64,000 nucleotides of DNA from an uncultured virus (IMG/VR IMGVR_UViG_3300048930_001385) (IMGVR_UViG_3300048930_001385), one strand, 5' to 3'; positions 123 to 61,721 are shown, counted from the first letter of the stretch. Numbers and translations: made by a program. The notes: a model not told the origin generated them from the sequence alone.

Positions 123-524
123 TCAGGAGGACAACCCTTCGGCCGCCTCCCATTCCCAGTCCTGGATCCACCATTCACGCAATGCTCTGACGGTGTGGAC
201 ACTGGGCGACTGCCAGGAGTTGAGGCGGGCGATATGTTGCCAGTGAGCGTAGAACTCGTCGCAGTGGTGGACGATCATCCTGCCGGGATCTTTCTCTTCG
301 GCTAGCAGTTTCATTATCACGAGGGCTACGCGATGACCCCGCTTCTTGCCGATCCCGGGCACCTCTTGCAGCGTCCGGGCGATGTGCTGAGTGAGACCGT
401 ATCCCTCAATGAGTGCTAACCGTTTCCAACTCCCCCCTCCTTTGCCGTTTATGGCCTGGGAATTGGCCTGGGGCCTCATGCTGGGTGGTAGACTAGCGAT
501 CAACACCTCATGCCAACTACTCAT
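123..524 (-). CDS. HhH (PGxG...REWW) family protein
   Basis: LPPSMR, LQEVPGIGKKRG, VRALREWW. Confidence 0.8.
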   Translation of the reverse strand: MSSWHEVLIASLPPSMRPQANSQAINGKGGGSWKRLALIEGYGLTQHIARTLQEVPGIGKKRGHRVALVIMKLLAEEKDPGRMIVHHCDEFYAHWQHIARLNSWQSPSVHTVRALREWWIQDWEWEAAEGLSS

Positions 525-528
525 ACTC

Positions 529-993
529 TCACCCTTGCCCACCCCCGCTTTCAAGCCACCATTGACGGATGAGGCGGAGTTGCTTGCGGGTGAGGGGCCG
601 ACGGTGGGGGAGCGAGGTCCCAGTCGGATAGTGCTTGGTCATCTTGCTCATCAGGCGGTTCCAGACTGTGCAGTCGGCTTGAGAGAATTTGAGAATCTTC
701 TCAGGGTCATGTTGTAAGACGTCTCCCGGTAGGGATCGACTAGCTACCTCATGAAGCAGGTAATCGGTGAAGGTTATCGCTGTGCGCTTGCCGAGCCCTG
801 GGGCCCCTGACCAAGCTTGCTCTAGGGCCGTGATAATCTCTTGGCGCTGGTGGCTGAGGTGTAGGGCTATCTGGAGAGCGTCCATATCCCCTTCCCCAAT
901 CACTGTTTCTGGGTAGGTCATGCACTCGCGTAGGCATGGCGGCAGGTCTGGTAGGTATTCGGTCTCAAACCATACTTCTTTCGCAGCCCTCAT
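529..993 (-). CDS. HhH (PGxG...REWW) family protein
   Basis: LPPCLRE, APGLGKRTA, QLRLIRQWW; ATGA overlap with the upstream paralogue. Confidence 0.8.
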   Translation of the reverse strand: MRAAKEVWFETEYLPDLPPCLRECMTYPETVIGEGDMDALQIALHLSHQRQEIITALEQAWSGAPGLGKRTAITFTDYLLHEVASRSLPGDVLQHDPEKILKFSQADCTVWNRLMSKMTKHYPTGTSLPHRRPLTRKQLRLIRQWWLESGGGQG

Positions 994-1400
994 CCTTGCC
1001 CTCCCCCGTGCTCTATCCACCATTGGCGGATGAGGCGGAGTTGTTTGCGAGTGATGGGACGTAGTGTCTTGGTGGCGAAGGGATCAAGGTCGTTGTGTCG
1101 CTCAGTCCGGAGCCTGCTAATAACTATGAGTCGTTCTGGCTCGTTATGGAGCGGGGCGCTGGGAAGCTCCGCACGAGCAGCCTGGCGGAGTAGGTAATAT
1201 GTAAAAGTGTCAGCAGCTCGGTTGCCGAGTCCTGGGATCTTGGCCCATTGAACCAGGAGTGCTGTTCTCAGGCCGCAGTAGTCGTCTATGGTCCAGACTC
1301 CTGTTCTGGACAGGGCCGGGAAGAGCTCTCTCATGGACAGGGGCAAGTCTCGCCTATAGTCCTCGTCGAGCCACTGCTGATAATTTTCAAGCCTTCCCAC
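990..1400 (-). CDS. HhH (PGxG...REWW) family protein
   Basis: LPLSMRE, KIPGLGNRAA, QLRLIRQWW. Confidence 0.8.
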   Translation of the reverse strand: MGRLENYQQWLDEDYRRDLPLSMRELFPALSRTGVWTIDDYCGLRTALLVQWAKIPGLGNRAADTFTYYLLRQAARAELPSAPLHNEPERLIVISRLRTERHNDLDPFATKTLRPITRKQLRLIRQWWIEHGGGQG

Positions 1401-1442
1401 CCTCTCAGCATAGCTCTTGATTTGACAGTGTTCAACCTATCC

Positions 1443-1853
1443 TCAAGAACGAGCCAGCCACTCGCGTACTAGCCGGGCCCTCATTACCCCACCTTCAGGC
1501 GGGATTAGCAACTCTGGAATATCATATACGATTTCACCGAGGGAGTGTCCTTCGCAGAGGCGGTGGATGATGAGATTGGTGAATACACGGCTCCAGTGGG
1601 GGCCGATACCAGGGAGGGTCTCCAAGCCGCTGAGGAGGGCGTGGTAAATGTTCGTGTCAGAGTGGAGAATGAATTCACGGTAGTCCCAGTCGCGCTCGCG
1701 CAGTATGAGATTAATGTTGTGCGTGTAGACCAAGTCTTGGATCCTGGGGTTTGGTTCATTGATGAGACCGGGGATCGCCAATCGGTCCGTTAGGGCCCGG
1801 TGCAACTCTCCCCGGAGGCGAGTGATCCGCTCCTGCTCCGATCCCCCTCTCAC
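1443..1853 (-). CDS. HhH (PGxG...REWW) family protein
   Basis: ETLPGIGPHWS, DIPELL, RLVREWL. Confidence 0.75.
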   Translation of the reverse strand: MRGGSEQERITRLRGELHRALTDRLAIPGLINEPNPRIQDLVYTHNINLILRERDWDYREFILHSDTNIYHALLSGLETLPGIGPHWSRVFTNLIIHRLCEGHSLGEIVYDIPELLIPPEGGVMRARLVREWLARS

Positions 1854-2287
1854 TCGTTCTCACCCCGCTCCGCTGTCGCCTGTACCCACCACTCGCGTAG
1901 AGCACGTACACTAGCTCGTGAGGGTGGTCGGTATTGGGTCGGGTAGTGTCCGCTGCAGACGAGGTGGTGTAGTCGCTCGGGGTCTTTGGTAATTAAAGAA
2001 TTAATGTCCTCTCCCCTGGCGATCAGGCCTCGGATCACCCAGGTGTATTCCAGACCCCAGGTCTCGCCAACCCCTGGCACCTGCTCCCAGACCTCGGCCA
2101 GGGCAATCGCCAGGTCTGAGCGATCAAGGAGGACCCTCTTCCATGTGACAAGATCACGCTGTCCTTGCATCAGTTCAAGAACAAGGTTGACCTCACTCTC
2201 GCTGAGCCTGACCACCCGAACAGGGAAAGGTAGTTGAGCCAGGGAGGCTTGCAGCTCGTTCATCGCCTGGGTGTAGTCAGCGTTCAC
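1850..2287 (-). CDS. HhH (PGxG...REWW) family protein
   Basis: EQVPGVGETWG, KDPERL, RPPSRASVRALREWW; start uncertain (ORF open to 2365). Confidence 0.75.
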   Translation of the reverse strand: MNADYTQAMNELQASLAQLPFPVRVVRLSESEVNLVLELMQGQRDLVTWKRVLLDRSDLAIALAEVWEQVPGVGETWGLEYTWVIRGLIARGEDINSLITKDPERLHHLVCSGHYPTQYRPPSRASVRALREWWVQATAERGENE

Positions 2288-2389
2288 AGGCTCACACACC
2301 TCTCCAGAGGTCGCAAATCTCACGCTGACGCAATAATCCCTGTTCCCGTGACCGCATGTTCTCACTGTAGCGCAGGAGAAAGCAGATAT

Positions 2390-2749
2390 CTAGGCCTGTG
2401 GGTCCTCATGGAGTTGTCCGCCCTCCATCGCCCCTTGCGCGAAAGCCGAGGCCCAGGTGGGGTGGTGTCCAGTGTAATTCTCGTCCTCTGCCTGGATGAC
2501 GTCATAGCCACCCTCGCAATCATCACGGACGTAGAAACCAGGGCGCTCGTCAATAGCCTGCTGTGATGCCCAGGCAATCGCTGCCAGGAGAGCATGTTCG
2601 CGGTAAGCATTGAGTGCGCGATCCAGCCCCTCCACCGTCGCCTCCAGGTGTTCACGGGTCAGCCCCAGGGCCTCCAGGTGATGGAGGATCTCATCGTCAG
2701 TGTAGTTGACGGCGATCCCGAGGAGCTGGGTGTCAAGAATCTCGGCCAT
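2390..2749 (-). CDS. hypothetical protein, paralogue of 56468-56800
   Basis: leaderless; shares ERP.F...GYDV...W..AF..GA.EGGQL. Confidence 0.8.
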   Translation of the reverse strand: MAEILDTQLLGIAVNYTDDEILHHLEALGLTREHLEATVEGLDRALNAYREHALLAAIAWASQQAIDERPGFYVRDDCEGGYDVIQAEDENYTGHHPTWASAFAQGAMEGGQLHEDPQA

Positions 2750-2831
2750 AATAAGATTATCGGCACCTGGACCAGTTTCTCGAGGCCAGCTTGGTGTCCG
2801 TTTTATAATAGACCGGGCGTGTAGGTGTCTG

Positions 2832-3161
2832 TTAGCTGAGGATGGCTTCGCGCTCGCTGTCGTTGACCTTCTGGCGAGTGAGGAACATTTTGATCGGGCG
2901 CAGTGCCGCCTTCAGCTCAGCTGCGGTAATGTCTTCGTACTCCATGCGACTATGCTCGGGGTTTGCCTTGCTTTCGATCAGGTCGATGGCTCGCGCGGCA
3001 GCGCGGCGCGGCTTGTCCCAGTATGCCCAGCCATCCGAGTTACGATTAGTCCAATCGCGCAGCTGGGCGACAGTAAGGGTTAGCGTCAGTCGGTTCGGGG
3101 TGTCACTCTGGCTGAAGCGTCGGAGTGCTTGCTGGAGATCGTAATCGTTCATGTAGCTCAT
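2832..3161 (-). CDS. hypothetical protein
   Basis: ORF between two element copies; WTNRNSDGWAYW. Confidence 0.75.
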   Translation of the reverse strand: MSYMNDYDLQQALRRFSQSDTPNRLTLTLTVAQLRDWTNRNSDGWAYWDKPRRAAARAIDLIESKANPEHSRMEYEDITAAELKAALRPIKMFLTRQKVNDSEREAILS

Positions 3162-3279
3162 ACTGTACCCTTTCGTCTGCTCTTCCTTATTATTATCGGC
3201 ACCGCGCCCGGGAGTCGGAGGACAACGGGGTGGCCACCTTACGAAGACTACGAGCAAGTACCCATGGGCTGTTGCTCAG

Positions 3280-3492
3280 TTACCGCCAGCGCCAGCCATC
3301 CCATATTAGCTCGGTGCCGTCAGCGAGGATGATTCCCTCCCAGCCATCGTCTGCCCTCTCATTATCTCGGCGAGCGAAAGTCGCATCCCAGTCAACAAGC
3401 TTCTGCTCTCGACTGAGCTCAAGCCGAGCCATCATCTGATCAGCCTCGTTCTTATCAGCACTGGCTAGGTTTAAGGCGATAGCGTAATCCAT
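3280..3492 (-). CDS. hypothetical protein, leaderless
   Basis: CGATA-N8-ATG. Confidence 0.7.
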   Translation of the reverse strand: MDYAIALNLASADKNEADQMMARLELSREQKLVDWDATFARRDNERADDGWEGIILADGTELIWDGWRWR

Positions 3493-3626
3493 AATATTGT
3501 TATCGTCACCCGCCCCAGTTCTCTCGAGGCCAGGATGGCGTCCTTCCCTGCGCGACATGAGACTCGGTGATCTACAGTTCAGCGATGTCTAGTTTTGAAA
3601 CAGCGTAATATAGTAAGTTCAATATC

Positions 3627-4136
3627 ATGGAAGAAGAAGAACTGCTCTCGTATCTGCCGCCCTTGACTCGGGATCACGCCCGAAAGCTGTACGCTCATTA
3701 TGAGCATATCATGACTGAGAATCAAGACCTGATCCCCTTCTCTTCTCGTCGCACAACGCCCAACCAACTGACATTTGATTGGCTGTTAGTTCACGAAGAT
3801 ACGCTGGTGGATGAGATCTACCATGAAGTTTTGTCTGTCAAGGGACTGGGGCCTCAACGCACTCGGGCGTTGCTGTGGGGTGATCGCGGGCTCTCATTGG
3901 AGAAGTGGATCTTCAGTGTGCGTTTGCTTCTCGTCTCCCCTGAGGCGCTATCCCATGCCGAATCTTGGGCACGAGCTCAGCGGAGAGAACACGTGAACTG
4001 GATGCGGAACAGCTATGAGATCGTGTGGCAGACATACCGGAGAGAAGACCTCATGTTTCCACCGCATCATCCGCTGTTCACCCGTCGGATGACTAAAGAG
4101 TTGCGCGACTGGGTAGCTGGTTGGCACTATGGATAA
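3627..4136 (+). CDS. divergent HhH family protein
   Basis: YLPPLTR, SVKGLGPQRT, SPEAL, ELRDW. Confidence 0.7.
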   Translation: MEEEELLSYLPPLTRDHARKLYAHYEHIMTENQDLIPFSSRRTTPNQLTFDWLLVHEDTLVDEIYHEVLSVKGLGPQRTRALLWGDRGLSLEKWIFSVRLLLVSPEALSHAESWARAQRREHVNWMRNSYEIVWQTYRREDLMFPPHHPLFTRRMTKELRDWVAGWHYG

Positions 4137-4233
4137 TTCTTGTAAAGAAAAGGCCAGTTACGCATAAGGAGAGTTGGCTTTTAACCACAACCCGTGCAAG
4201 GGGTCAACGACACACCAGCCAGTATCATTTTCC

Positions 4234-4290
4234 TGTACGATATCAGTTTGTACATAAAACTTGTACGTATTTGTACACAAAAATTGTACA
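4234..4290. repeat. five TGTAC[AG] motifs in an AT-rich intergenic stretch
   Basis: motifs at ~4234, 4249, 4262, 4272, 4285. Confidence 0.6.
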
Positions 4291-4624
4291 TAGCCTAGCC
4301 AAGATCAGCTTTGTGGGCAAGCAATGTCATACGTGATCAGAGTTCATACCCCTAGACAGCGTGGTCTTCATTGTGACTGGGCTCCGAGCAAAAAATAGCC
4401 ATCATCCTGGACCACCATTCATGCACAATCATCCATTGATGGAGAGCGAAGGGATGCATATTGGGGCTATCTTCTTTGCTATGTATTTATCGGTAACATC
4501 AACCGGATCAGGAGGACAGTCTGATGGCCTGTCATCAGGAGGTTCAGTGGATTGTGTGCACTCCAGCACAATCGCGGGCCCAAACCCACAGGTCAAACAG
4601 GCGGGTCACGCTGAACCAGTCTAC

Positions 4625-4825
4625 CTATGCCCGCACTGGCCCGTGAGCGTAGAGGCGGGTAGTGTCAATCACGCGATGGATGGCAGCTTCACAGGCAGCA
4701 GCGCGGGCCTTGCGCACGTCAGTGGCGGTGACGGTGAACATTCCAACGGTTTCGCCATGCTTCGTGTCACTGACACGGACATTGTAGGTGCGGCCACCCT
4801 TGCGCTGGTTTGAGAACTTCGCCAT
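4625..4825 (-). CDS. hypothetical protein, paralogue of 14671-14871
   Basis: MAKF.NQRKGG.TYNV.V.DTKHGE; near-identical proteins. Confidence 0.8.
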   Translation of the reverse strand: MAKFSNQRKGGRTYNVRVSDTKHGETVGMFTVTATDVRKARAAACEAAIHRVIDTTRLYAHGPVRA

Positions 4826-4934
4826 CGTGAACCTCTGCTGCCGGGGGAGGCTCTTCCTCCCTTGCTATATATTTATCGGCAGCAGAACGCGGATCCTCAA
4901 GGCCAGGTGAGTGGCCCAGCCGGATCGTCCTAGA

Positions 4935-5720
4935 TCACGAGTATATAAATTCCCGAGAATCCGACTCTATTAAGTGCCACGGCGGCTGCTCAAAGCGTCC
5001 CTCATGAACACGGTGATGAAATACATCCTCGGCAGTCATCGCACTGAGCGTGGTAAGCTGCACTCCCTCGGGGCTGTGCTCTACCCCGTGCTCGTAGTAC
5101 AGCGCTCGGGTGCAGTTGCCATGCTCGTCCCACTCTTGGTGTGCGGGCCCCTCATGGATAGGCCGATGACGCTTGCCAGCAATGCAATACTTCATGAGCG
5201 CGAGCTGACCATTCGGGTGCCACCGCTCCTGGGCAGGCCCTTCGCTCGGATCGCGGCTCAGGGTCATGAGTATATTCTTGTAGCTGATGCTGATGATCTG
5301 TTCGTCCGGTGAAAACACGGCCCTACACATCGGCCCCGGTCCATCCCAGATTCGGACGGTGTTGCCGTTCTCTGTATATTGGCGATGGACAAGGATCCGG
5401 TGAACGGGGTGTAGTTGATTGAGATGGTCAAGGTCGTGCTGGGTTTGGGAGAGGTCAGTGCCTCGGAAACTTGTCCAATCAATCCGGGCACTCGTCAAGT
5501 CGGCGCCGTCGAGCTTGGCCCCATCGAGCTTGGCTCCGCAAAGATTCGCGCCATATAGGTCAGCGCCGGTGAGATCAGCTCCCGTGAGATCCAGAGCCGA
5601 AAGGTCAGCGTGTACGAGGTCTCTCGGCCAGACGTAAGCCTGTCGCGCTTCCCCACTCCCTTCACGCCAGAGGCGGTGAAAGCTCACCGGGTCTAAGCGA
5701 GGGTGTGGAAGGATCGTCAT
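4935..5720 (-). CDS. pentapeptide-repeat plus HRxxGPA-repeat protein
   Basis: ADLSA LDLTG ADLTG ADLYG ANLCG; HRPIHEGPA; N-terminus shared with 62183-63319. Confidence 0.8.
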   Translation of the reverse strand: MTILPHPRLDPVSFHRLWREGSGEARQAYVWPRDLVHADLSALDLTGADLTGADLYGANLCGAKLDGAKLDGADLTSARIDWTSFRGTDLSQTQHDLDHLNQLHPVHRILVHRQYTENGNTVRIWDGPGPMCRAVFSPDEQIISISYKNILMTLSRDPSEGPAQERWHPNGQLALMKYCIAGKRHRPIHEGPAHQEWDEHGNCTRALYYEHGVEHSPEGVQLTTLSAMTAEDVFHHRVHEGRFEQPPWHLIESDSREFIYS

Positions 5721-5757
5721 AGTGATAGTATCGGCAGAGCGAACCTTTACTTGAGTA

Positions 5758-5839
5758 TGCGGATGGAGGGACTCGAACCCTCACATCTTGCGATACAGGA
5801 TCCTAAATCCTGCGCGTCTACCAATTCCGCCACATCCGC
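5758..5839 (-). tRNA. tRNA-Leu(TAG)
   Basis: GCGGATG acceptor, CAGGA-TTTAGGA-TCCTG anticodon arm, long variable arm, GTTCGAGTC; no encoded CCA. Confidence 0.95.
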
Positions 5840-5961
5840 TTGCCCTATTATTAACGGCACAAACACGCGAGACTAGAGGCCAATCTCTGGCCCTACTGGA
5901 ACTTCTTCTCCAGCAAGTATTTATTGAGGACAGGTAGTTGGCCTCTGGGACCTAGCCCCGC

Positions 5962-6207
5962 CTAGGCATCCCTGAGCGCTGCGGCGATGTGCTCGGCCAC
6001 GTGGGCATCGGCATCGGCCTGAGCGCTCTCACGGTTGGCATCGGCCTGCCCGCTGTTAAGGTGCTTGCCCTTACCCTCGCCCTTGAAACCACACGAGCAA
6101 GAAGCGTGGAAGCCCTCACCGTAACGAGCGCCACCCGGCGATGCCATGATTGCGGGACGAACGCGGTGGGCGGCGACAACCTCTGCGATTACTGCGATCT
6201 CGGTCAT
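5962..6207 (-). CDS. small CxCG...HxxxH putative metal-binding protein
   Basis: SCSCG, AHVAEH; related to 19964-20236 and 15282-15527. Confidence 0.7.
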   Translation of the reverse strand: MTEIAVIAEVVAAHRVRPAIMASPGGARYGEGFHASCSCGFKGEGKGKHLNSGQADANRESAQADADAHVAEHIAAALRDA

Positions 6208-6601
6208 GGTGGCATCTCCCGGTAAGATATCTACGTGTCAGGCTCTAGCCCTTGCCCTTGCCTAATATATATCGGCACGGCAAGTATTTTATTGAGGACA
6301 GATGATTGGCCTTCTGCCCCGTCGGAGATTAGGCTGTCAGCGGTGGCAATGCACGCAGGGCTTGTCGTCCTCTGTGGCCGGGCGATCAACACTCAACAGG
6401 AGGGACCCACAACGAGCCTTCCAGCTATTGGGCACAGGAGAGTCAGCAGGCTTGGCAGCGACATGTGCGACGGTGCCCGGGAGGGTCACGATGCGATCAC
6501 TAGCCTTGATATTCTGTTCTCTCCAAACTATTGGTATTCGCCCTTGCCTAGTATATATCGGCAGCGGGATGCGCTGCCAGGAGGCCAATGTCCTGACCGC
6601 C

Positions 6602-6802
6602 CTAATCCTGCCGCTTGTTCTGTCGCCAGCTGAAGCCGAATGCACCCGGCGCGTCAATGGTCGTCGTCTGACGGTTCCGGCCCCAAGTGCGACTGAAGGG
6701 ACCGAGGCGGAGCGTCCAGCTGACACCCGTCTTCGTGAAATTGACGTAGAACAGCCCGGGGATGATTGGGAAGCTCTTACGGAATCGGAGTCGGTACTTC
6801 AT
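6602..6802 (-). CDS. DUF4236-like protein
   Basis: RFRKSFPIIPG...NFTKTGVSW...G...PG.FGFSWR; paralogue at 19247. Confidence 0.75.
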   Translation of the reverse strand: MKYRLRFRKSFPIIPGLFYVNFTKTGVSWTLRLGPFSRTWGRNRQTTTIDAPGAFGFSWRQNKRQD

Positions 6803-6811
6803 GTTCTGACC

Positions 6812-6922
6812 TCAGTAGTTGGCGAGGTAGGCGGTGATCTCGCCCATGAGCCGGCGCATGAGGTCGTTGATGATTGCCTCCTGCTGCTGGGCCGTCATCG
6901 TGAAGCCAGTGAAATCAATCAT
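6812..6922 (-). CDS. 36-aa peptide, paralogue of 19772-19879
   Basis: MIDFTGFTMTAQQQEAIINDLMRRLMGEITAYLANY. Confidence 0.7.
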   Translation of the reverse strand: MIDFTGFTMTAQQQEAIINDLMRRLMGEITAYLANY

Positions 6923-7009
6923 CCTCGCGCCTTCCCTTGCTTTGCCGTAATATTATTATCGGCAACTAACGAGGAGACTGGAGGCCAAGTTGGTGGCCGA
7001 CCTATTCAA

Positions 7010-7083
7010 TCGGGCATGCAAGATTCGAACTTGCGACCCCTCGCTCCCAAAGCGAGTGCGCTACCAGACTGCGCCAATGCCCG
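7010..7083 (-). tRNA. tRNA-Pro(TGG)
   Basis: CGGGCAT acceptor, CTCGC-TTTGGGA-GCGAG, GTTCGAATC. Confidence 0.95.
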
Positions 7084-7214
7084 TGGTGTATCTACATAGA
7101 GTGTATCGGAACATCTACCGGATATCTTGAGGCCTTCGCATCGGCCGCTTGTGCTCTATTGACCTGAACGAGCACCTGGTACCAGCCACACGACCAGCCT
7201 TAGCCTCTGGTCCC

Positions 7215-7733
7215 TCAACCACTTCCTCCATTCTCCAACCACCACTCCCGTATTAGTCTTAGTTGAGCCCTTGTAAGCGGATTATTTTGATTGGGTGCAA
7301 ACACGTTCTGTCTGAGTTGCTTATTGTATTCATACAGCTCTTGCGGTGCATGGAGCAATCGCGTTCCGGGCAGGCGGTTCTCGTTATTATCAAGTTGAAC
7401 CGGAGCAAAGGTCCAGTCAACTTCGCCTGGCGCACACGCCTGTAGCTCGTAGAGAAGGATGTCGTATAGGTTCTCCGCGCAGCGCGTGCCGAGGCCAGTC
7501 ACCGATTCAAACTCAGCCTCTAGGATTGGGCGCAAGGGTAGAGTTAGCCCGTACCAATGAGATAGAGTGGGTTTGTAATGATGATCCTTCGAGTGAATCC
7601 ATATAGGAGGCTGAAGGGCACTGTAAAACCAGTCGGGCAGTGAGGTGAAGTTTTCACGGAGAGGATGTGGAAGGCTCTCCGTTACCGGCCCTTGTAGCCA
7701 TTGGATCAGCATCGAGCCCTTGTCAGTGGTCAC
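7215..7733 (-). CDS. HhH (PGxG...REWW) family protein
   Basis: LPHPLRE, SVTGLGTRCA, QLRLIREWW; start uncertain. Confidence 0.75.
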   Translation of the reverse strand: MTTDKGSMLIQWLQGPVTESLPHPLRENFTSLPDWFYSALQPPIWIHSKDHHYKPTLSHWYGLTLPLRPILEAEFESVTGLGTRCAENLYDILLYELQACAPGEVDWTFAPVQLDNNENRLPGTRLLHAPQELYEYNKQLRQNVFAPNQNNPLTRAQLRLIREWWLENGGSG

Positions 7734-8133
7734 ACCAACCCCCGTTTTTGATCCACCACTCCCGCACCAGCCGAAGCTGAGCACGGGTCAGGGCCCGATA
7801 CTCACGGCCACGAAAGATCTTGACAGTGTTGCCGACATTCATATCCTTAACCCAGTCTTGCAGGTGTGCCAATGCTCGCTCAGGTTCATGGATTAGCATG
7901 TGACCGGGCAACTGGTTAACCAGGATGTCTGCTTTAATAAGGATTGCGACCTGGCCTGCAGCGGCGGGTCCTAGGCCCGGGGCTGATTGGAACAACTCAC
8001 TGAGTAGGTCTGCAAGACCTTGAGGGTGCAGAAAAGTATATTGCTCTAACCACACAGAAGTAATAGTCTCGCGAAGTGGCAGGGGAAAGCTCTCAATCGA
8101 TTCATCCCACTCTTTAGCCGGTATCCTACTCAT
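7723..8133 (-). CDS. HhH (PGxG...REWW) family protein
   Basis: FPLPLRE, SAPGLGPAAA, HEPER, QLRLVREWW; TGCTAGACT -10 upstream. Confidence 0.8.
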   Translation of the reverse strand: MSRIPAKEWDESIESFPLPLRETITSVWLEQYTFLHPQGLADLLSELFQSAPGLGPAAAGQVAILIKADILVNQLPGHMLIHEPERALAHLQDWVKDMNVGNTVKIFRGREYRALTRAQLRLVREWWIKNGGWCDH

Positions 8134-8250
8134 CCTGTCCTAGTCTAGCACGCTCTGCCCTATCCACCATGGACGGAATACTCAGTCTGAGCAGGCCGGT
8201 CTTGACCAAACTCTGTGATTAAGCTCTCCGCAGCCTGTTGGCAAGCCGAT

Positions 8251-8826
8251 TCATTGCTCACGGTTAAGCCACCTTTGCCTCTCCCTGGCCTGGCGTGTAA
8301 GCTTTTGGATCATCTGGCCCTGCGTGGCCATGTAAGTCTTGTCTAGAGAGCTCCACTTACCACTCTTCATATATAGGGGCACCGCGACCTTGTTGAGGAT
8401 AATGTGATATGGCGAGAAAGCGATGCTCTCTGTGCCCTGGTGATGCCAATGGCTGACATTTGCAAACTCACCTGGCTCCATCGCCCGAATGCGTTCTACC
8501 ATTAATCCAATTGTTCTAATTTCAGCTGCCGCATCACGATAGTAGCCAGGCCATGCCTCGTAGTAGACCGCATCAATCATGTCGCCGTCCCTGTTCCAAT
8601 ATGAGCGAGCGGGCCCCTCGTCTACACGACGACTCAACTTGAATCCACCGCTAGCTGGGTAAGAGTGAGACCTCAGGCTATACTGCTCGGTTTCCAACGA
8701 CTGATCATCTTGGTGGTAGCGGCACTTGATCTCGTAATCGCCGTCATGGATAAGGAGTAGCTCACCCCTCTGTTCGCGCACGATACCGTGCTTCCAGCGA
8801 TCCCTGTCCTCATCAAACGTTCTCAT
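8251..8826 (-). CDS. hypothetical protein, paralogue of 25919-26500
   Basis: EGPA, YYE.WPGYY.DAA.EI, SPYH, VPLYMK shared. Confidence 0.8.
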   Translation of the reverse strand: MRTFDEDRDRWKHGIVREQRGELLLIHDGDYEIKCRYHQDDQSLETEQYSLRSHSYPASGGFKLSRRVDEGPARSYWNRDGDMIDAVYYEAWPGYYRDAAAEIRTIGLMVERIRAMEPGEFANVSHWHHQGTESIAFSPYHIILNKVAVPLYMKSGKWSSLDKTYMATQGQMIQKLTRQARERQRWLNREQ

Positions 8827-8829
8827 CGG

Positions 8830-8949
8830 CTACCTTGTAATCCCTCTGGCGTCGTCTTCAGCCTTGTTATAAGGCATCCGCTCTCGTAGAGCCAGAGGTG
8901 TGCTAGGATAGTAATCCGTTGTTATCCAGGTGTAATACTCCTCGAGCAT
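8830..8949 (-). pseudogene. N-terminal fragment of the HhH family
   Basis: MLEEYYTWITTDYYPSTPLALRERMP...* resembles the N-terminus of 27493-27960. Confidence 0.55.
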
Positions 8950-8996
8950 GTACTCATTGTAGCACACGGCCCCAGCTAATCTTTAATTGCCACCTG

Positions 8997-9818: not shown

Positions 9819-9838
9819 TCTCTTAGTCTAGCACGATC

Positions 9839-10258
9839 TTAACTGGTCTCACGTACCCACCACTCACGGAGGGCTTGAATAGCTTGCCGAGAGGGCGGCT
9901 GCGAATCTTTTCCATCGTAGAGCAGCAGGTTCTTTCTCATATTGAGCCCGATATGATTCTTGAATACCTCGGCATGGTTCATGATGATTTCATCGGGGTA
10001 CATACCCGTCTCCTCCATTACCTCAACTATGACCCTGCGCAGATCGTAAGCCCAAGCGTACCCGATGCCATCAATCTCGAGGATGGCGAGGTACAGCGCA
10101 GTGAGGAAGTAACCGTCGTAGAGTATGCGACGGCGGAGCTGAGCGGCATCATCAACACCAGCATAGCGTGAATAATCAAGGGGCAAGAGCATTCTGCTAA
10201 TCGAGGGTGGGAGCTGCATGCTCTCATACCACTCCTGAATTTCATTCAAACTACTCAC
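9839..10258 (-). CDS. HhH (PGxG...REWW) family protein
   Basis: LPPSISR, EIDGIGYAWA, PPSRQAIQALREWW. Confidence 0.8.
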   Translation of the reverse strand: MSSLNEIQEWYESMQLPPSISRMLLPLDYSRYAGVDDAAQLRRRILYDGYFLTALYLAILEIDGIGYAWAYDLRRVIVEVMEETGMYPDEIIMNHAEVFKNHIGLNMRKNLLLYDGKDSQPPSRQAIQALREWWVRETS

Positions 10259-10721
10259 CCTCCAACTCCTCGATCCACCACTCGCGAAGAGCGATAACGT
10301 TCTTGCGACTGAGTGCGGATCGATGCCTACCCCGCACCTCTTCCTGAGATTCTGTCAACAGCAGACCAGGATGGTTCAGTAGAACGTCCTTCGGGGTCGC
10401 TGGGGATGATGCCAACATTTGATCACATAAAAGCAAGGCGCCCAGTCTGGACCTCTTGATTCCAAACCCTGGGACCCTCTGAAGGCTCAGCGCTAAGGGG
10501 TGACGGAGCTCTCCTAGGGCTTGTTGCATAATGAAGGAGCGACAGACCGATGGGAACAGCTCTTGCGAGCCCACTCGGGAGTTGTGAGCGAGGATGGTTG
10601 TTTCTCTCTGTAGCTGATCATCAGTGTATCGGCGTAATCGTGAGCGCACACCCGAGGGCAAGCTCTGGTAGAGCGGGCCCCAGCACCACTCGTAATACTC
10701 CCTCACCTCTGCATCGGTCAT
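10251..10721 (-). CDS. HhH (PGxG...REWW) family protein
   Basis: LPSGVR, RVPGFGIKRS, VIALREWW. Confidence 0.8.
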   Translation of the reverse strand: MTDAEVREYYEWCWGPLYQSLPSGVRSRLRRYTDDQLQRETTILAHNSRVGSQELFPSVCRSFIMQQALGELRHPLALSLQRVPGFGIKRSRLGALLLCDQMLASSPATPKDVLLNHPGLLLTESQEEVRGRHRSALSRKNVIALREWWIEELEGE

Positions 10722-10741
10722 GGGCACGTATCCGCGCGGTC

Positions 10742-11197
10742 TCACAGTCGATCTCGCTCCCACTCGCTCTCCCACCATTCACGCACCGCCTGAACTATAC
10801 GCCAGGGCGTGCGCGCGTCGCTGTAAGGCCGATGTCCATTGACCAGCTCTTCTGAGTGCTTATCTAAAACCTGATCGACGCTGAGTGCAAAGTTGGCCAT
10901 AAGCATTGTTATGTGCCGCGCTAAAACACGAGAGCGCCTATAACCAACCCCTGGCACCTCTTGAAGGCGCGCCTTAAGTAAATTATTAAGACCACTATTA
11001 TTAAGAGCAGACCTTCGTACCATATAAGGCGAAGTGGAGTAATCATAGCCAACAGACTGGACTATCGACATGCTCTCCCGTATTGACGGGGGCAAAGGAA
11101 TCGTGTTGATCCACTCGCAAGCAAGCTCAGGCGTCCACTGAAGGCTGCGATCTGTCCAGCTGCGACTAAAGCCTTTGTTCTCATCGGACGGGCTCAT
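10742..11197 (-). CDS. HhH (PGxG...REWW) family protein
   Basis: LPPSIRE, QEVPGVGYRRS, VQAVREWW; TGTCATACT -10 upstream. Confidence 0.8.
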   Translation of the reverse strand: MSPSDENKGFSRSWTDRSLQWTPELACEWINTIPLPPSIRESMSIVQSVGYDYSTSPYMVRRSALNNSGLNNLLKARLQEVPGVGYRRSRVLARHITMLMANFALSVDQVLDKHSEELVNGHRPYSDARTPWRIVQAVREWWESEWERDRL

Positions 11198-11267
11198 GTG
11201 CTGAGTATGACATGGCCCTGGCAAGTGCGCTAGTCTCCGATGTACATGCCACCCTCGGAGGCATTAG

Positions 11268-27348: not shown

Positions 27349-27488
27349 TTAGCCGGTGCCGTCGTTCTCAATCCACCACTCACGCACTAACCGAAGCTGT
27401 CCACGAGTTAGGGTTCGGCCAGTATATAGTTTGTTCAGCTCTCCCGCGCCGGCCCATCCATCCACTGGGGCCATTCTTTAGTGTTCAT
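27349..27488 (-). pseudogene. internally deleted HhH-family paralogue
   Basis: MNTKEWPQWMDGPARES* joined out of frame to TLTRGQLRLVREWWIEND. Confidence 0.65.
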
Positions 27489-27492: not shown

Positions 27493-27960
27493 TTACTCAT
27501 GCTCGTCCATGTTCTCAAGCCACCACGCGCGGAAGCGATTGTAATCTCGCCGTGAAGGTGTTTGTAGGGCAAGCATTTTTCGACCGGGTTCTTGAAGCGG
27601 TGTGACAGCGATGACAGCATTACGATTCTTTTTGACGTATTCTCGGATCATGCTATACAGCGACTCGGGATCATCCCGGACAAGGTCGCCAATAACTTTT
27701 TTCTTGAGTGCACAGTGAAGCATCACGCTCTCATAGAGTCCGGCATACTTTTTGCCGATACCAGGGACTGTCTTGAGACAATCGTCGAGATGAAAGAAGC
27801 CTAGGACACGATAAGCGATAACCACCGTGTCAATCAGGTCGTCCGGGGTCATGCTATCGCGCAGTGCATGGCGCGAGCCCCGATGAAAAGGGGTGACCGC
27901 TCGCAAGGGTGCAGGGAGACTCGGATAGTAGTGCGTCGTTAGCCATTCGTAGTAATCCAT
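27493..27960 (-). CDS. HhH (PGxG...REWW) family protein
   Basis: LPAPLR, KTVPGIGKKYA, IGDLVRDDPESL, RFRAWW; TGCTATGAT -10. Confidence 0.8.
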   Translation of the reverse strand: MDYYEWLTTHYYPSLPAPLRAVTPFHRGSRHALRDSMTPDDLIDTVVIAYRVLGFFHLDDCLKTVPGIGKKYAGLYESVMLHCALKKKVIGDLVRDDPESLYSMIREYVKKNRNAVIAVTPLQEPGRKMLALQTPSRRDYNRFRAWWLENMDEHE

Positions 27961-28777: not shown

Positions 28778-29278
28778 TCAAGGCGAAGTTATCCACCATT
28801 CTCTGAAGTTTTTGGCAACGGAAGGGTGTTTACTGGCGTGCGTAGAACTTCCCGCAGTATACTCTCGACGATTGAATATCTCCAGCAAGTCATCCGGGCT
28901 ATTGTGCAAAATTTCACTAGGAAGTTTTTGTTCGTAGACCATTTTCAACATGCCGACCGCAGCGCGACCTGACCACGCGCTTCCAATCCCGGGCACCTCG
29001 AGTGATCCGGCCTGGAGGGCGCGTCCCAGGCCACAGTCGTAGAATTTCTGCGTATTGAGGCGCGGTAGGCCTATTGCAGGCGTTAGTGATTCTTTGACCA
29101 GTGCATATTGCCAGCTGACAACTGGACCGTAGTCCTGCTGTACGCGAAAATTCTCAACGACCAAACGGGAGCGCACAGAGTCGGGAAGGTCGCCTAGTAG
29201 CTCCGCAGTAAGCCAGTCGTAGTATTGACGCTGTACCCAGCGGTTACATCTTATCTGCTTGGGTATCCATATCCTCAC
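28778..29278 (-). CDS. HhH (PGxG...REWW) family protein
   Basis: LPDSVR, EVPGIGSAWS, NSPDDLL, KNFREWW. Confidence 0.8.
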   Translation of the reverse strand: MRIWIPKQIRCNRWVQRQYYDWLTAELLGDLPDSVRSRLVVENFRVQQDYGPVVSWQYALVKESLTPAIGLPRLNTQKFYDCGLGRALQAGSLEVPGIGSAWSGRAAVGMLKMVYEQKLPSEILHNSPDDLLEIFNRREYTAGSSTHASKHPSVAKNFREWWITSP

Positions 29279-35482: not shown

Positions 35483-35941
35483 GTGGAGCGAGCCGAGTTA
35501 CATCCTTACTTGAGAGTTTTACCTCCCTATGCTCTAGATTATGTTCTTATGAGGTGGCCGCATATCAATACCCTGACCCCGGACTGGCAGGTGACGATTT
35601 TGAAAGAGTGGCTGGCTAAGGAAAAATTAACACACGAGCTCAAGACCTTGCCGGGCGTCGGTGATCGTCGGAGCCATGCTGTACTATCCTTGCGCAAGAC
35701 GGTTACCAATCCAGATGATTCGGTGGTAACTAATTACGATCTTTGGGTGCAGTTTTTGTGCAGATTATGGACAGATCCGGATGCGCTATTAGATGAAAAA
35801 TTCCGGCATGAAAACAGATGGGGTGGCAAGCCAACTATCCAACTATTCACGAAGCCAGTCTTGATTGAGATACGCACCTGGTCGTCGTCCTGGCTTGACG
35901 AGAATGATTTGGAGCTTGTTTGCTCAGCGCTCTATAGTTGA
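35483..35941 (+). CDS. divergent HhH family protein
   Basis: VLPP, KTLPGVGDRRS, TDPDALL, EIRTW; TATACT 6 nt before GTG. Confidence 0.7.
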   Translation: MERAELHPYLRVLPPYALDYVLMRWPHINTLTPDWQVTILKEWLAKEKLTHELKTLPGVGDRRSHAVLSLRKTVTNPDDSVVTNYDLWVQFLCRLWTDPDALLDEKFRHENRWGGKPTIQLFTKPVLIEIRTWSSSWLDENDLELVCSALYS

Positions 35942-52954: not shown

Positions 52955-53008
52955 GGAGGGCCAGCCTAAGCCAGCCCTCCCCGGTGTCTAGTTTGATCCG
53001 TCCGTGGG

Positions 53009-53428
53009 TCAGAGCGAGTATGCCCCGTCCACAGCGGTCACGCCAGCGCGCTTGAGGGCGGCGCGGACAGCGTCGGCCTTGTCCTTCGCAGTGAACGCGG
53101 TCAGCTCACGCATCGTGATCTGCGCAGCGATCTGCTTGGATGTGAGCGGCACGCGCGCCGCCTTGAGAACCGCGAGGGCTGCCTCGCCGGTCTTGCCGAC
53201 CTTGCCGCCGTCACGACGCGGGCGACCTCGGCCCACCACCGGGAGACCAGCCTCAACCTTCGCAGCGTTCAGGCTGCCGAAGGCCGTAATGTACGCCTGC
53301 GCCGAGGGAAGACCACTACCCTTGACGTTGATGTGCTTCGTACCGATGTTCTCACCCGGATTAGCCGCCGCGATCCACTGCAGATTCAGCGTCAGCATTT
53401 CGTTCGTGTACTTGCGCTTACGAGGCAT
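53009..53428 (-). CDS. homing-endonuclease-associated repeat-like/AT-hook protein, copy 3
   Basis: near-identical to 12209 and 40081. Confidence 0.8.
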   Translation of the reverse strand: MPRKRKYTNEMLTLNLQWIAAANPGENIGTKHINVKGSGLPSAQAYITAFGSLNAAKVEAGLPVVGRGRPRRDGGKVGKTGEAALAVLKAARVPLTSKQIAAQITMRELTAFTAKDKADAVRAALKRAGVTAVDGAYSL

Positions 53429-53525
53429 TGTCTTCTCCTGTTTGGATTGCGGGAGGCCCATCCTCCCTTGCCGTACTATTATCGTTACCGAGTGGCTAGA
53501 CCTTGAGGCCAGACTGGTGGCCCTG

Positions 53526-53756
53526 TTAAAGCTTTTGCCATTCCATGAGCTCACCCATGCCGACAACCTTCTGAAGCCCTCGCCCCTCAGGGTCATTGGG
53601 ATCATCGGGAAGGCCGACGTACACTGCCAGGTTCGCAATGACCTCTGGGGCCATGAACGCAATATCATTAGGGTGCGGGCAGCGGTATACTCTCCAGCCG
53701 CTCTCCACTACACCGCTGGTGCGCTTAACCTTCACGATCTCACCTGGCTCAAACAT
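53526..53756 (-). CDS. small SH3-like protein
   Basis: FEPGEIVKVKRTSGVVESGW. Confidence 0.65.
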   Translation of the reverse strand: MFEPGEIVKVKRTSGVVESGWRVYRCPHPNDIAFMAPEVIANLAVYVGLPDDPNDPEGRGLQKVVGMGELMEWQKL

Positions 53757-54991: not shown

Positions 54992-54994
54992 AAG

Positions 54995-55068
54995 TGCCCC
55001 TGGTGGGAGTCGAACCCACAAACCCCGGATTTTAAGTCCAGTCCATATGCCAATTCTGGTACAGGGGC
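54995..55068 (-). tRNA. tRNA-Leu(TAA), short variable region
   Basis: GCCCCTG acceptor, CTGGA-CTTAAAA-TCCGG, GTTCGACTC. Confidence 0.9.
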
Positions 55069-58942: not shown

Positions 58943-59425
58943 CTAATGGCTGGCCCACACGCCGCCACCATTGTCAATCCACCACTCGCGTAAATTCTTA
59001 ATAGCTACTCGGGAGGGCGGGCGAGATAGGGCAGGATCTACGGCGGCTCGACAACGATCTAGTAGGTATTCTGGATCACACAGCACGAGTTCACTCGGAT
59101 GGTAGCAGTCGGCTAGCCCCTGAGCGAGGGCGGTACGAATATCGTTGGACCAGAGATTTCCCAGTCCGGCTACCTGAGATAATATAGTGTCCGCTGAGGT
59201 GCTCGGCATCCACAGGGCGTGCATTATTCGGGCCATGCCTCTCTGATGGTCGCCCTCGAATCCAGCTAGCCATTGCCGACAGCTACGCAGTGCATGATTC
59301 AGCCCCTTAGAGGGGGCATAGCATTCGCGCAGAGAACAAGGGACTAGTTCGATGCCTTCTGATACGGCCCAGTCCACATAGTCGCGGGGGCTGGTAAACA
59401 CAGAATCTAGGCACCACCTTGTCAT
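58943..59425 (-). CDS. HhH (PGxG...REWW) family protein
   Basis: VPCSLRE, QVAGLGNLWS, CDPEYL, RPPSR..IKNLREWW; TGCTATATT -10. Confidence 0.8.
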   Translation of the reverse strand: MTRWCLDSVFTSPRDYVDWAVSEGIELVPCSLRECYAPSKGLNHALRSCRQWLAGFEGDHQRGMARIMHALWMPSTSADTILSQVAGLGNLWSNDIRTALAQGLADCYHPSELVLCDPEYLLDRCRAAVDPALSRPPSRVAIKNLREWWIDNGGGVWASH

Positions 59426-59473: not shown

Positions 59474-59878
59474 TCAACCAGTCGCTGCCTTCAACTCCGC
59501 CAGCCGCGCCTTTACCTGCTTCTCCGCGTCCAGCAACAGGCGCTTTGCCTGCTTGATGCGCTCAAGCTCCTTCTTAGCGGTCTCAACGCTATCCTGCGCC
59601 CGCCACTCACAATAAGTAGGACTCAGCTGGAAGAAATTTGTATGCTCGTTCATGAACAGGCACGACTGCGAGGAGTGGTGATAAACGCCGACCTTGACAC
59701 CATTACGACCGCTGAGAGCACGGCCAGCCCCAGGGCCAGCGCCGTAGTAGTCTTCACGCAAGAAGCTACCTTCACGACTACGACCGTGGTGGAGAGTGCG
59801 GATATCCTCTAGCAGCTGCTTACCATCCAGCTCATGCAGGCAATCGGTATTAATAAGAACAGGGATAACATTACCCAT
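59474..59878 (-). CDS. hypothetical protein
   Basis: AAGGAG RBS. Confidence 0.7.
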   Translation of the reverse strand: MGNVIPVLINTDCLHELDGKQLLEDIRTLHHGRSREGSFLREDYYGAGPGAGRALSGRNGVKVGVYHHSSQSCLFMNEHTNFFQLSPTYCEWRAQDSVETAKKELERIKQAKRLLLDAEKQVKARLAELKAATG

Positions 59879-59961
59879 GGTAGCTCCTTATTTGCTTACT
59901 GAGCACTGTATCGGCGTGACTGGGTAGGGCCAGGAGGACAATCAGGTGGCCTCTGGACTAA

Positions 59962-60366
59962 CTAGCTATGCGACGCAGCATGCGCTGCTTCTCGCGCACG
60001 TTGGTCGTGTTCCGCATTACTGATTCCATCGCCCATCGGATGTGAGTCAAAATCGATCTCATGATCATTACGATCCGCGCCGGTGATTGCCCAGTTGATC
60101 CGTGCTGATGCGTCCTCGAACATCTGCCCAGCGTTCATATGTCCGGCTTCCACAGAGATATCGCGTGCCAGCTTGACAGCCTCGTGAGCCACAACAAGGA
60201 CTGATCGCCGCACGAGCACCATCTCCTCAAGGTGATCATCACGATCCAGCTGCGAAGCGCGCTGTCGGAGGTTACGAACCGCGTTCTCAATGCGATTACG
60301 GAGGTGCCATCGGGACTTCTCCTCGGCCTTCTCGCGAGCAATTTGTGCGTGAGTGTAAGTATCCAT
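59962..60366 (-). CDS. hypothetical protein, leaderless
   Basis: CGATA-N8-ATG. Confidence 0.7.
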   Translation of the reverse strand: MDTYTHAQIAREKAEEKSRWHLRNRIENAVRNLRQRASQLDRDDHLEEMVLVRRSVLVVAHEAVKLARDISVEAGHMNAGQMFEDASARINWAITGADRNDHEIDFDSHPMGDGISNAEHDQRAREAAHAASHS

Positions 60367-60609
60367 ACAGCTAGTATCGTCACCGTCGCTGACTTGAGGA
60401 GGACAACATCCTGGCCGTCAACAACTCATGTCGCATGGAGCCCAGCCGCATGTATCACACTCTGAACTGCTGTGGGCGCACTGATCAAGAGCCTCGCCAG
60501 CGCTATCGATCTCAACGCCACAGTCTACGCACTCAGCGGCTGCCTCGCCACCCTCGTTCATATTGTCACAGCACATCGTCGCTCCTTGTCAGCATCCTCT
60601 ACACTAATG

Positions 60610-61083
60610 TCATCGGTCAAGATACGTCGAACGTGAGGCCATCTTCTGGTCTGTTTCAAGTTCGGCTACCCACCACTCGCGAAGGGCGCGCACTTGTCTC
60701 CTGGTCGGAGGGCGTAAGTTGTTTTCATGCCCTTGCGCTACCAGCGCAGAGAATGTAGCCTCTAAGATCCCCGCAGTATCTGTTAACAGTTGATCTGGTT
60801 CGTTCATGAGCATATGGGCAAAATCTTGACCATGTTCGATATAGTAGCAAAAAGTTTTTGTCAGGTCCAACGCTGCCGCGTCACCAATACCAGGTACTTG
60901 AGCAAACTCCTGCTGGATGTGTCTATCGGAGAAAAACTCAACTCGGATGAAGACTCCCATATCTGGTTTGCGGCAGGATGATCCCCCGTGCAACCCTGTG
61001 TTAAGGCTCTGGGGCAGATTAGGGAGAATGGTATTTCTTATCCACGCTCGTCTCTCGTCGCAGTCCTTGCACACTAATACCAC
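60610..61083 (-). CDS. HhH (PGxG...REWW) family protein
   Basis: LPQSL, QVPGIGDAAA, NEPDQL, RPPTRRQVRALREWW. Confidence 0.8.
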   Translation of the reverse strand: MVLVCKDCDERRAWIRNTILPNLPQSLNTGLHGGSSCRKPDMGVFIRVEFFSDRHIQQEFAQVPGIGDAAALDLTKTFCYYIEHGQDFAHMLMNEPDQLLTDTAGILEATFSALVAQGHENNLRPPTRRQVRALREWWVAELETDQKMASRSTYLDR

Positions 61084-61721
61084 CGCCCGTGCCCGTAATA
61101 ACTAGCGCAGTCAAGACATTGTCTGAGGACGACGCTGCCCATGGGGTTGCCAGCGTTATCGGCGGGGTAGAAATAACTGGTGCGCAGATACTCTTCACCT
61201 GCTTTGATTATATGTTGATCCAGTCGGTAGCCGGTGTCGTGCTCGTAGTAGCCGGTGCACTCATGGTCTTTGCGGGCTCGGTGTTTGGAGCCATTCCAGT
61301 TATAGAACTCTCCAGGCTTGTGGACAATGCGAGGCACTCCACCGTGAGGAACAGACCACCACTCACGCAAGCTCTGAAAGCCCTTACGCTGGATCTTACC
61401 TCTTGAGTGGACATATGCTTGTTGCAGGTCAGGGTGACCCAGCGCAGTGCTAATCAAAAAACCAGTCTGGAGATCCTTGCGCATACACTCGGTGTAATGA
61501 CTCTGCAGTCGCGGCCCGATACCCTCAAGTTTGCCAAGCTCTTGGTAGATGACGCTTATTAAGCCATTGCGACCACGGCCCATGAACGTCTCGGCCAAGA
61601 TCCACCGCCATCCTCGGCTTCCACCATAAGGCATGATTGTCAATCTCTCACGGACACTATCTGGCAGGTCATCATAGACATCACTGATTAACCAGTTGTA
61701 ATATGCCTGATCTTGATCCAC
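61074..61721 (-). CDS. HhH family protein with a C-terminal Cys-containing extension
   Basis: LPDSVRE, KLEGIGPR, QSLREWW, then ARKDHEC...IKAGEEY...CLDC. Confidence 0.75.
   Translation of the reverse strand: MDQDQAYYNWLISDVYDDLPDSVRERLTIMPYGGSRGWRWILAETFMGRGRNGLISVIYQELGKLEGIGPRLQSHYTECMRKDLQTGFLISTALGHPDLQQAYVHSRGKIQRKGFQSLREWWSVPHGGVPRIVHKPGEFYNWNGSKHRARKDHECTGYYEHDTGYRLDQHIIKAGEEYLRTSYFYPADNAGNPMGSVVLRQCLDCASYYGHGRWY

Follow-up and report, generated by a model that had tools for sequence, protein, structure and literature searches.

The 64,000-nucleotide (nt) stretch of DNA considered here, called the window below, belongs to a 552,685-bp contig of an uncultured virus (IMGVR_UViG_3300048930_001385). 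It has a G+C content of 52-57% and is densely packed with small open reading frames (ORFs), most of them on the minus strand. Seventeen genes spread between positions 123 and 61,721 encode members of a single family of small proteins with a central helix-hairpin-helix (HhH) motif, and two further loci hold remnants of such genes. On the best reading of the data, the family is real, small, all-helical and previously uncatalogued, and represents a lineage-specific expansion. Its products may bind nucleic acids, as we tentatively argue below.

A sequence-only reading of the window had named the 17 loci and described a shared series of motifs: W...LP..[LVM]R near the N-terminus, a central [VIL]PG[ILV]G, then [DE]PE.L and a C-terminal PP[ST]R..[VL]R.[LIV]REWW. 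ORFs are present at all of these coordinates, and their translations carry the motifs in that order. That the loci form one diversified family of paralogues was borne out by a leave-one-out search, in which each member was removed and a profile built from the other 16 was run against all 644 six-frame ORFs of at least 50 amino acids (aa); all 17 members were recovered. For 14 of them the expectation values (E) ranged from 6.3e-12 to 6.5e-25, the weakest recoveries being the two plus-strand genes at 3627 (5.3e-4) and 35429 (2.3e-5) and the minus-strand gene at 1443 (1.7e-7). When the window ORFs were searched with the full profile, the only non-member below E 0.4 was a fragment at 8833-8982 (E 1.6e-6). 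The six frames contain the signature R[EQ]WW 14 times, compared with a mean of 0.1 in 20 shuffles, and 161 of the 378 pairs among the 28 members known from inside and outside the window match each other in BLASTP at E<=1e-3. The members and remnants in the window are listed here, E denoting the leave-one-out value unless stated otherwise:

123..524, minus strand: w123; E 1.4e-21; likely start the ATG at 524 (longest ORF to 554); hairpin of the basic KR type, PGIGKKRG
529..993, minus strand: w529 (P0005); E 6.5e-25; longest ORF to 1023; ATGA overlap of its ATG at 993 with the stop of w990
990..1400, minus strand: w990 (P0008, modelled); E 1.6e-23; TTGAAC-17-TATGCT-6-GTG upstream
1443..1853, minus strand: w1443, divergent, ending REWLARS; E 1.7e-07; GTGA overlap with w1850
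1850..2365, minus strand: w1850 (P0006); E 3.4e-19; the gene caller's start is 2287
3627..4136, plus strand: w3627, plus-strand subfamily, ...FTR..LRDWVAGW; E 5.3e-4
7215..7712, minus strand: w7215 (P0009); E 3.1e-16; longest ORF to 7784
7723..8133, minus strand: w7723; E 1.3e-20
8833..8982, minus strand: N-terminal remnant, only the W..YP..LALR part (MLEEYYTWITTDYYPSTPLALRERM...); profile E 1.6e-6
9839..10258, minus strand: w9839, W-type hairpin DGIGYAWA; E 4.6e-17
10251..10721, minus strand: w10251 (P0007); E 7e-20; longest ORF to 10778
10742..11224, minus strand: w10742; E 3.8e-13; possible ATG start at 11197
27349..27471, minus strand: C-terminal remnant, a 41-aa ORF ending LTRGQLRLVREWWIENDGTG, in frame behind w27493; only the C-terminal part is kept
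27493..27960, minus strand: w27493 (P0010), ending RAWW; E 3.6e-18; longest ORF to 27984
28778..29278, minus strand: w28778; E 2.1e-20; TATATT-6-GTG upstream
35483..35941, plus strand: w35429, plus-strand subfamily; E 2.3e-05; longest ORF from 35429; TATACT-6-GTG at 35483
58943..59425, minus strand: w58943 (P0001); E 6.4e-15; longest ORF to 59446; TATATT-6-ATG upstream
60610..61083, minus strand: w60610; E 9.4e-21; its start overlaps the end of w61074
61074..61721, minus strand: w61074, 215 aa; E 6.3e-12; TAGACA-17-TACACT-6-GTG upstream

The protein lengths given by the sequence-only reading, mostly 130-175 aa with one protein of 215 aa, agree with the likelier starts (about 133-170 aa) and with the 215-aa protein, whereas the longest ORFs of the others reach from 136 to 189 aa. 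For the ORF opening at 35429, the likely start is the GTG at 35483, as that reading had it, and the two fragments it listed at 8830 and 27349 are real remnants of the family. Its description of many tandem genes with overlapping stops and starts applies to four of the eight tandem junctions (990/529 through ATGA, 1850/1443 through GTGA, 10251/9839 over 8 nt and 61074/60610 over up to 10 nt); the other four have gaps of 4-42 nt.

The 215-aa protein has a C-terminal extension of about 90 aa (61074-61358, minus strand) that contains Cys and His residues. Neither this extension nor the first genes of the arrays matched any Pfam family at or above the cut-off, the extension reaching zf-AN1 at E 0.16 only. 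Among the 17 window members, this protein is also the only one absent from the representative-library matches reported below.

Conservation was counted by column in an alignment of 28 family rows (A4). In the N-terminal extension it falls on W10 (18/28), L19 (21/28), P20 (26/28) and R24 (19/28). The hairpin follows with P56 (19/28), G57 (26/28) and G59 (27/28), flanked by hydrophobic residues at 55 (26/28) and 58 (27/28) and by a small residue at 63 (26/28). Next come P88 (21/28), E89 (15/28; D, E, N or Q in 24/28) and L91 (20/28). The strictest columns lie in the last helix, where R125 and W127 are present in 28/28 rows and W128 in 27/28, preceded by A, G, S or T at 117 (23/28), R118 (20/28) and a basic residue (K, R or H) at 122 (19/28). 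This helix reads [ST]117-R118-x-x-h-R122-x-h-R125-E-W127-W128 and has its arginines on one face. The remaining positions are variable, including two loops that correspond to residues 25-37 and 101-116 of P0008.

The assignment of hPGhG to the HhH class was correct. The family columns satisfy the pattern h-x-x-h-x-G-h-G-x-x-x-small-x-x-h, HHH_3 proteins are among the sequence matches, and in both structure models the motif lies between two helices. Motifs of this class bind the DNA backbone without sequence preference. By eye, two types of hairpin can be told apart in the family, one with K or R two to three residues past the hairpin, the other with W three residues past it (GxGxxW).

A search of 1.84 billion representative proteins returned 59 proteins at E<=1e-3. 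The full-length family matches among them comprise 16 of the 17 window members, ten further copies on the same contig (P0016-P0020, P0027, P0028, P0032, P0049 and P0059) and one on a contig of 179,550 bp (P0024). The 552,685-bp contig carries at least 27 full-length copies and two remnants. The window, with 17 copies in 64 kb, is a hot spot. The copy number of the contig is a lower bound, as both the gene calls and the clustering at 50% identity affect it. A word-indexed protein search, seeded with alignment A1 or A4, retrieved four proteins each time, all of them from the window's contig or P0024. Searches of viral contigs with P0024 or P0018 and of metagenome contigs with alignment A3 gave no match. 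Two short metagenome matches obtained with P0018 as query (L001 and L002) contained no family member in a six-frame profile search, and tblastn of one member, P0008, against 50,697 phage records gave nothing at E<=0.01. Within the search terms used, we found no HhH expansion in jumbo phages described in the literature.

Judged by their sequences, the copies are very old and very diverged. No two copies are more than 38.5% identical, the closest pair being the adjacent genes w529 and w990, and tip lengths have a median of 1.85 changes per site. Most inner branches of the tree are unresolved; one clade is supported (99/95) and unites w3627, w35429 (start 35483), P0059 and P0024, which share a C-terminal variant of their own, ...FTR..LR[ED]W. 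That the motifs are kept despite such deep divergence points to selection. This is a real lineage-specific multigene expansion, of a kind already known from giant phages.

The family profile maps to no characterised family. A resemblance to DUF4332 (PF14229) and Cdd1 (PF11731) had been suggested; neither was listed when the 17 members were run with hmmscan up to E 1, and the suggestion is not upheld. For the RadA/Rad51 N-terminal domain, named in the same context, yeast Rad51 (3lda_A) appeared in the structure comparison at Z 3.2 only, with 63 residues aligned, and no sequence match was obtained in Pfam or the PDB. PHROGs matched one of 17 members (E 3.4e-4) and PADLOC one of 28 (E 5.8e-4), with no consistent family in either case, and NCBIfam matched 0 of 28. 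Among the 59 representative proteins, the non-family matches cover profile positions of about 50-95 in several stretches, the hairpin segment 66-93 matching proteins with multiple HhH repeats; 13 of the 14 that were scanned carry Pfam HHH_3 or HHH, and the fourteenth is a DUF6273 protein. A profile search of PDB sequences listed RecR, UvrC, XPF, PolX, DisA, ComEA, RuvA and ERCC1 at E 0.04-1.6, weak values at which unrelated chains (haemoglobins, an exoribonuclease) are listed as well. The C-terminal domain of the RNA polymerase alpha subunit (PF03118) came up at rank 12 in a language-model feature comparison (0.87) and is a lead only, as there is no Pfam match to it. The ESM Atlas otherwise returned unnamed feature clusters (0.89-0.91) and structure rows with template modelling (TM) scores below 0.4.

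AlphaFold2 models were built on the 28-row family alignment for P0008 (w990) and for P0017, a copy outside the window that is 18% identical to P0008. Both are confident, with a predicted local distance difference test score (pLDDT) of 90.0 and a predicted TM score (pTM) of 0.83 for P0008, and of 86.8 and 0.78 for P0017. These two distant members are modelled as all-helical proteins with the same order of helices, in line with a shared fold; as both models use the same alignment rows, their agreement is not fully independent. In a structure search independent of Foldseek, covering 48,161 chains, five-helix domains of the (HhH)2 or SAM-like kind recur in the top rows, making up about 19 of 50 rows for one model, as judged by entry titles. 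The ERCC1 C-terminal domain was found at Z 4.3 (root-mean-square deviation (rmsd) 3.2, 75 residues aligned) and Z 4.6 (rmsd 3.3, 74 aligned of 84), Mus81-Eme1 at 3.9 and 4.7, FAAP24 (of FANCM-FAAP24) at 4.1, and the C-terminal half of UvrC and RuvA at 3.8 each. Mus81-Eme2, LigA and many SAM domains were further neighbours. In (HhH)2 domains, a connector helix joins two HhH motifs that are related by pseudo-twofold symmetry; domains of this five-helix kind stood at Z 3.5-4.7 among the top rows. From these neighbours, at Z scores that are weak, we infer a fold of the (HhH)2/SAM-like class. A homodimer prediction for P0008 with A4 scored 0.03 and 0.01 with no controls and counts neither for nor against binding.

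The small genes of the window are accompanied by a promoter-like unit that occurs 100 times between positions 102 and 63636, always in one orientation and never on the other strand; 1.25 occurrences are expected from shuffles. Three copies serve as examples:

12650-12719, minus strand: promoter-like unit
17227-17296, minus strand: promoter-like unit
31341-31410, minus strand: promoter-like unit

On the coding (minus) strand the unit reads gGcCa-N6-TgGcCtc.ag.ta ... GCCGATAataata..gcaa, or in an alternative rendering GGCCA-N5/6-TGGCC (or TTGTCC) TCAAGATAA...GCCGATAATA(T)TAGGGCAAGG. In 17 of the 100 units, an ATG or GTG follows exactly 8 nt past GCCGATA; if GATAAT is the -10 element, these 17 starts sit 6 nt downstream of it, which would be the geometry of a leaderless mRNA. 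Most other units have an AGGAG-type site with a start codon 30-45 nt later, and the upstream palindrome of the unit could be the terminator of the preceding gene or the site of a regulator. In some units a GGGAGG-N5-CCTCCC hairpin also lies across the start codon.

The family genes do not lie directly behind these units. In six of the 17 members TANNNT precedes the start by 5-7 nt (by exactly 6 nt in five of the six), compared with a background of 3.0% of all ATG/GTG codons; the members that have no TANNNT of their own closely follow or overlap a neighbour. The idea that the arrays are simple operons behind the repeated unit was dropped, given these six members with their own -10-like element at leaderless spacing. 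No sequencing run and no RNA data containing window positions 1501-11500 were listed, which counts neither way.

The contig is probably that of a giant phage, judging by the genes of the window. These include a VG64/RDF-type gene (Phage_VG64), which matches 938 phage records, a deoxynucleoside kinase (dNK) and a GmrSD_C/HNH-type nuclease. PHROG matches were obtained for nine of the 106 other window ORFs, and almost nothing else is recognisable; in the library scans of the window, no structural gene was recognised near the family genes. An Rfam scan of the window found four tRNAs and nothing else:

5758-5839, minus strand: tRNA-Leu-TAG
7010-7083, minus strand: tRNA-Pro-TGG
14313-14385, minus strand: tRNA-Arg-CCT
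54994-55068, minus strand: tRNA-Leu-TAA

The last of these is 83% identical over 77 nt to a Microbacterium phage tRNA-Leu. Hints at the host conflict, as the phage relatives of three window proteins point to Mycobacterium and Bacillus, to Caulobacter and Synechococcus, and to Arthrobacter and Microbacterium, respectively. Within this phage-like region, the plus strand also carries a full-length gene for an AI-2E family transporter (51806-52954; PF01594, E 2.4e-50; also phrog_24681) with TAGAAT 6 nt before its ATG. A search with it turned up only loci 21-29% identical in two unrelated metagenome-assembled genomes, which indicate no host.

A second family in the window has four members with repeated units of about 24 residues, ...G..HR-(D/E)GPA...W..G..., at 4935-5720, 8997-9818 and 26505-27383 on the minus strand and at 62183-63319 on the plus strand. 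Two of them have an N-terminal pentapeptide-repeat region (PF00805, E 3e-17 and 2.7e-9), and all four genes have a gene or remnant of the HhH family no more than about 1.5 kb away.

In an all-against-all comparison, the gene pairs 8251-8826/25919-26500 and 11699-12118/28056-28238 recur beside family members. The HhH family grew partly by segmental duplication, the two versions of the cassette running 11699...7215 and 28238...25919 with one remnant in each. This old duplicated cassette spans 7215-12118 and 25919-28238 and consists of a NUDIX-like gene (11699-12118/28056-28238), HhH genes, an HhH remnant, an HR-DGPA gene of the family just described and a gene of 191-193 aa (8251-8826/25919-26500); the order of the remnant and the HR-DGPA gene differs between the copies.

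Two further sets of repeats were seen in the window. A 300-nt direct repeat is present three times (12153-12452, 40025-40324 and 52953-53252; 83-93% identical) and covers paralogous minus-strand ORFs at 12209-12658, 40081-40500 and 53009-53668, which may be mobile genes of the endonuclease type; one of them has a weak match to the homing-endonuclease-associated HNH_repeat (E 0.0057). A 241-nt direct repeat is present twice (44458-44698 and 46741-46981; 83% identical) and contains paralogous small ORFs on both strands.

As to the function of the HhH family, we tentatively propose that its members bind nucleic acids as small proteins of the (HhH)2 type, in which the hairpin and the arginine-lined last helix would hold a phosphate backbone. 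According to this proposal, an N-terminal helical extension of about 35 residues with W...LP..LR would precede a five-helix (HhH)2- or SAM-like domain. The first HhH of this domain is canonical ([VIL]PG[ILV]G-x-x-x-small). In place of the second there would be a variable loop, which has (R)PP[ST]R at its end and would cap the last helix, [ST]R..hR.hREWW. Backbone amides of the hairpin, together with R118, R122 and R125, would touch the phosphates of a DNA or RNA backbone irrespective of sequence, and the fold would be held together by the tryptophans and by the turns at LP, PG and PE. The unconserved surface with its two variable loops could give each paralogue a partner or preference of its own. 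The genes would either each have a -10-type promoter that gives an apparently leaderless mRNA, or else be translationally coupled in short arrays. Their setting among about 100 small genes behind repeated promoter-like units would fit an early, host-directed role. We put this reading forward because of the motif, the pattern of conservation, the structural neighbours and the precedent of phage G (see below); in particular, the conserved ladder of arginines on the last helix favours nucleic-acid binding.

Several results weigh against it. When the 17 members were run against Pfam with hmmscan, no HhH family reached its gathering score, the best being HHH_5 with 14 bits and RecR_HhH with 12.5 bits (cut-offs of 27). 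Foldseek found nothing at E<=1e-3 in the PDB with the two models or in BFVD with one. The independent structure search gave best values of Z 4.3-4.8 and no chain above 4.8, scores that lie under the tool's meaningful range for helical proteins; by its own note, Z <8 may mean only a common arrangement. The second hairpin lacks the GhG signature and has instead the variable loop described above, which is not textbook (HhH)2. The W-type hairpin, found by eye in about half of the members, could point to contacts with protein rather than DNA. Finally, net charges range from -6 to +7 and isoelectric points (pI) from 4.9 to 9.6, with pI <7 in 15 of 28 members, values that are unusual for plain DNA binders; this spread argues against every member being one.

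Some of the same features would suit a panel of protein binders for which a SAM-like/(HhH)2 fold provides just the stable frame, each paralogue binding a different host protein in the service of takeover or anti-defence, with nucleic acid not being the ligand. The surface and the two loops vary strongly around a small invariant core, the spread of pI and the tryptophan that takes the place of the usual basic residue after the hairpin are readily accommodated, SAM domains, which are protein-protein modules, are numerous among the nearest structures, and the copies are deep and many, amid small genes with their own promoters. Yet among the polar features, conservation is strongest in the glycines of the hairpin and the last-helix arginines, which a pure scaffold would not need; PADLOC matched a single member, and no anti-defence family matched. 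We regard it as the main rival, though an unlikely one; binding of nucleic acid and binding of protein are not mutually exclusive.

A more speculative reading would treat the paralogues, of which there are at least 27, as a combinatorial set. Members might pair with one another, often with the translationally coupled neighbour, as the (HhH)2 domains of ERCC1-XPF, Mus81-Eme1 and FANCM-FAAP24 do, and the pairs could serve as adaptors specific for DNA structures or proteins. Such a library of binders on a DNA-repair fold might manage or blind host systems that target DNA, or manage the phage's own approximately 100 palindrome-bearing promoter units. This is an analogy, and we consider it improbable.

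Similarly improbable are DNA-binding proteins that are packaged in the virion or organise the genome, comparable to internal head proteins or nucleoid-like ones, with the copies serving dosage and architecture. Backbone binding without sequence preference, as is general for HhH motifs, would suit that role, and the phage G literature raises a structural DNA-binding option for the zinc ribbons of that phage (PMC7824862). Dosage, however, favours similar copies, yet the top identity within the family is 38.5%; many members are acidic, and the neighbourhood consists of small promoter-led genes, tRNAs and nucleotide-metabolism genes, with no structural gene recognised nearby. Least of all do we expect ORFan duplicates that decay or drift neutrally and have kept no function, a very remote prospect even though the two remnants record gene death inside the arrays and the family is almost confined to one contig, for all 17 frames are unbroken, one set of a dozen positions has survived divergence with tip lengths of about 1.85 changes per site, both models are confident and start signals are conserved.

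Returning to the proposal of small nucleic-acid binders, the closest known systems are the (HhH)2 domains of ERCC1/XPF, Mus81-Eme1/Eme2, FANCM-FAAP24 and UvrC, and domain II of RuvA. The family is like them in its predicted five-helix layout with an HhH at the front, and its sequence profile weakly touches XPF, UvrC, RuvA and ERCC1, every Z being below 5. It differs in two elements that those domains do not have, an extra N-terminal pair of helices with W...LP..LR and an invariant helix with R-x-W-W, in the loop ending PP[ST]R where those domains have a second hairpin with GhG, and in being free-standing proteins of 120-190 aa instead of appendages to a nuclease or helicase. The family would work like, and probably folds like, an (HhH)2/SAM-like domain. 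It belongs to none of the HhH families described, as no Pfam threshold was reached and DUF4332 and Cdd1 were unmatched.

The ComEA-like HHH_3/HHH repeats (PF12836, PF00633) are matched by profile positions 66-93, with whole-protein E of 4e-9 to 7e-4. Here the likeness is limited to the motif of about 28 residues, and each family protein contains just one canonical hairpin. The Lsr2 DNA-binding domain (PF23359) offers a fainter comparison: the C-terminal ...LTRAQLRLIREWW... of two of the 17 members aligns to its positions 3-17 of 37 (E 0.1; 12.3-12.4 bits, under the cut-off of 26.9), whereas positions 18-37 are absent, the proteins ending 0 to about 13 residues past the helix, except for the 215-aa member.

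At the level of the whole family, the nearest parallel is Bacillus phage G, for which an expansion of zinc ribbons in about 35 copies and one of Myb-type helix-turn-helix (HTH) proteins have been described, proposed to be transcription factors or structural DNA binders (PMC7824862). The likeness lies in tens of copies of one small, putatively DNA-binding module per giant phage genome; the differences are that the module here is an HhH and not a zinc ribbon or HTH, that the phage is a different and uncultured one, and that the copies are extremely diverged. Giant phages devote much extra DNA to expanded orphan families, almost none of which has a known role. What is unusual for such an expansion is that the present family has a recognisable functional motif (an HhH together with a helix lined by arginines), models of high confidence and a natural split into a basic and a tryptophan subtype, which places it among the more testable ones. 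As Pfam, PHROGs and NCBIfam have no entry for it, there is room to deposit a new model. The expansion as such conforms to the known pattern, and its value lies in tractability rather than in surprise.

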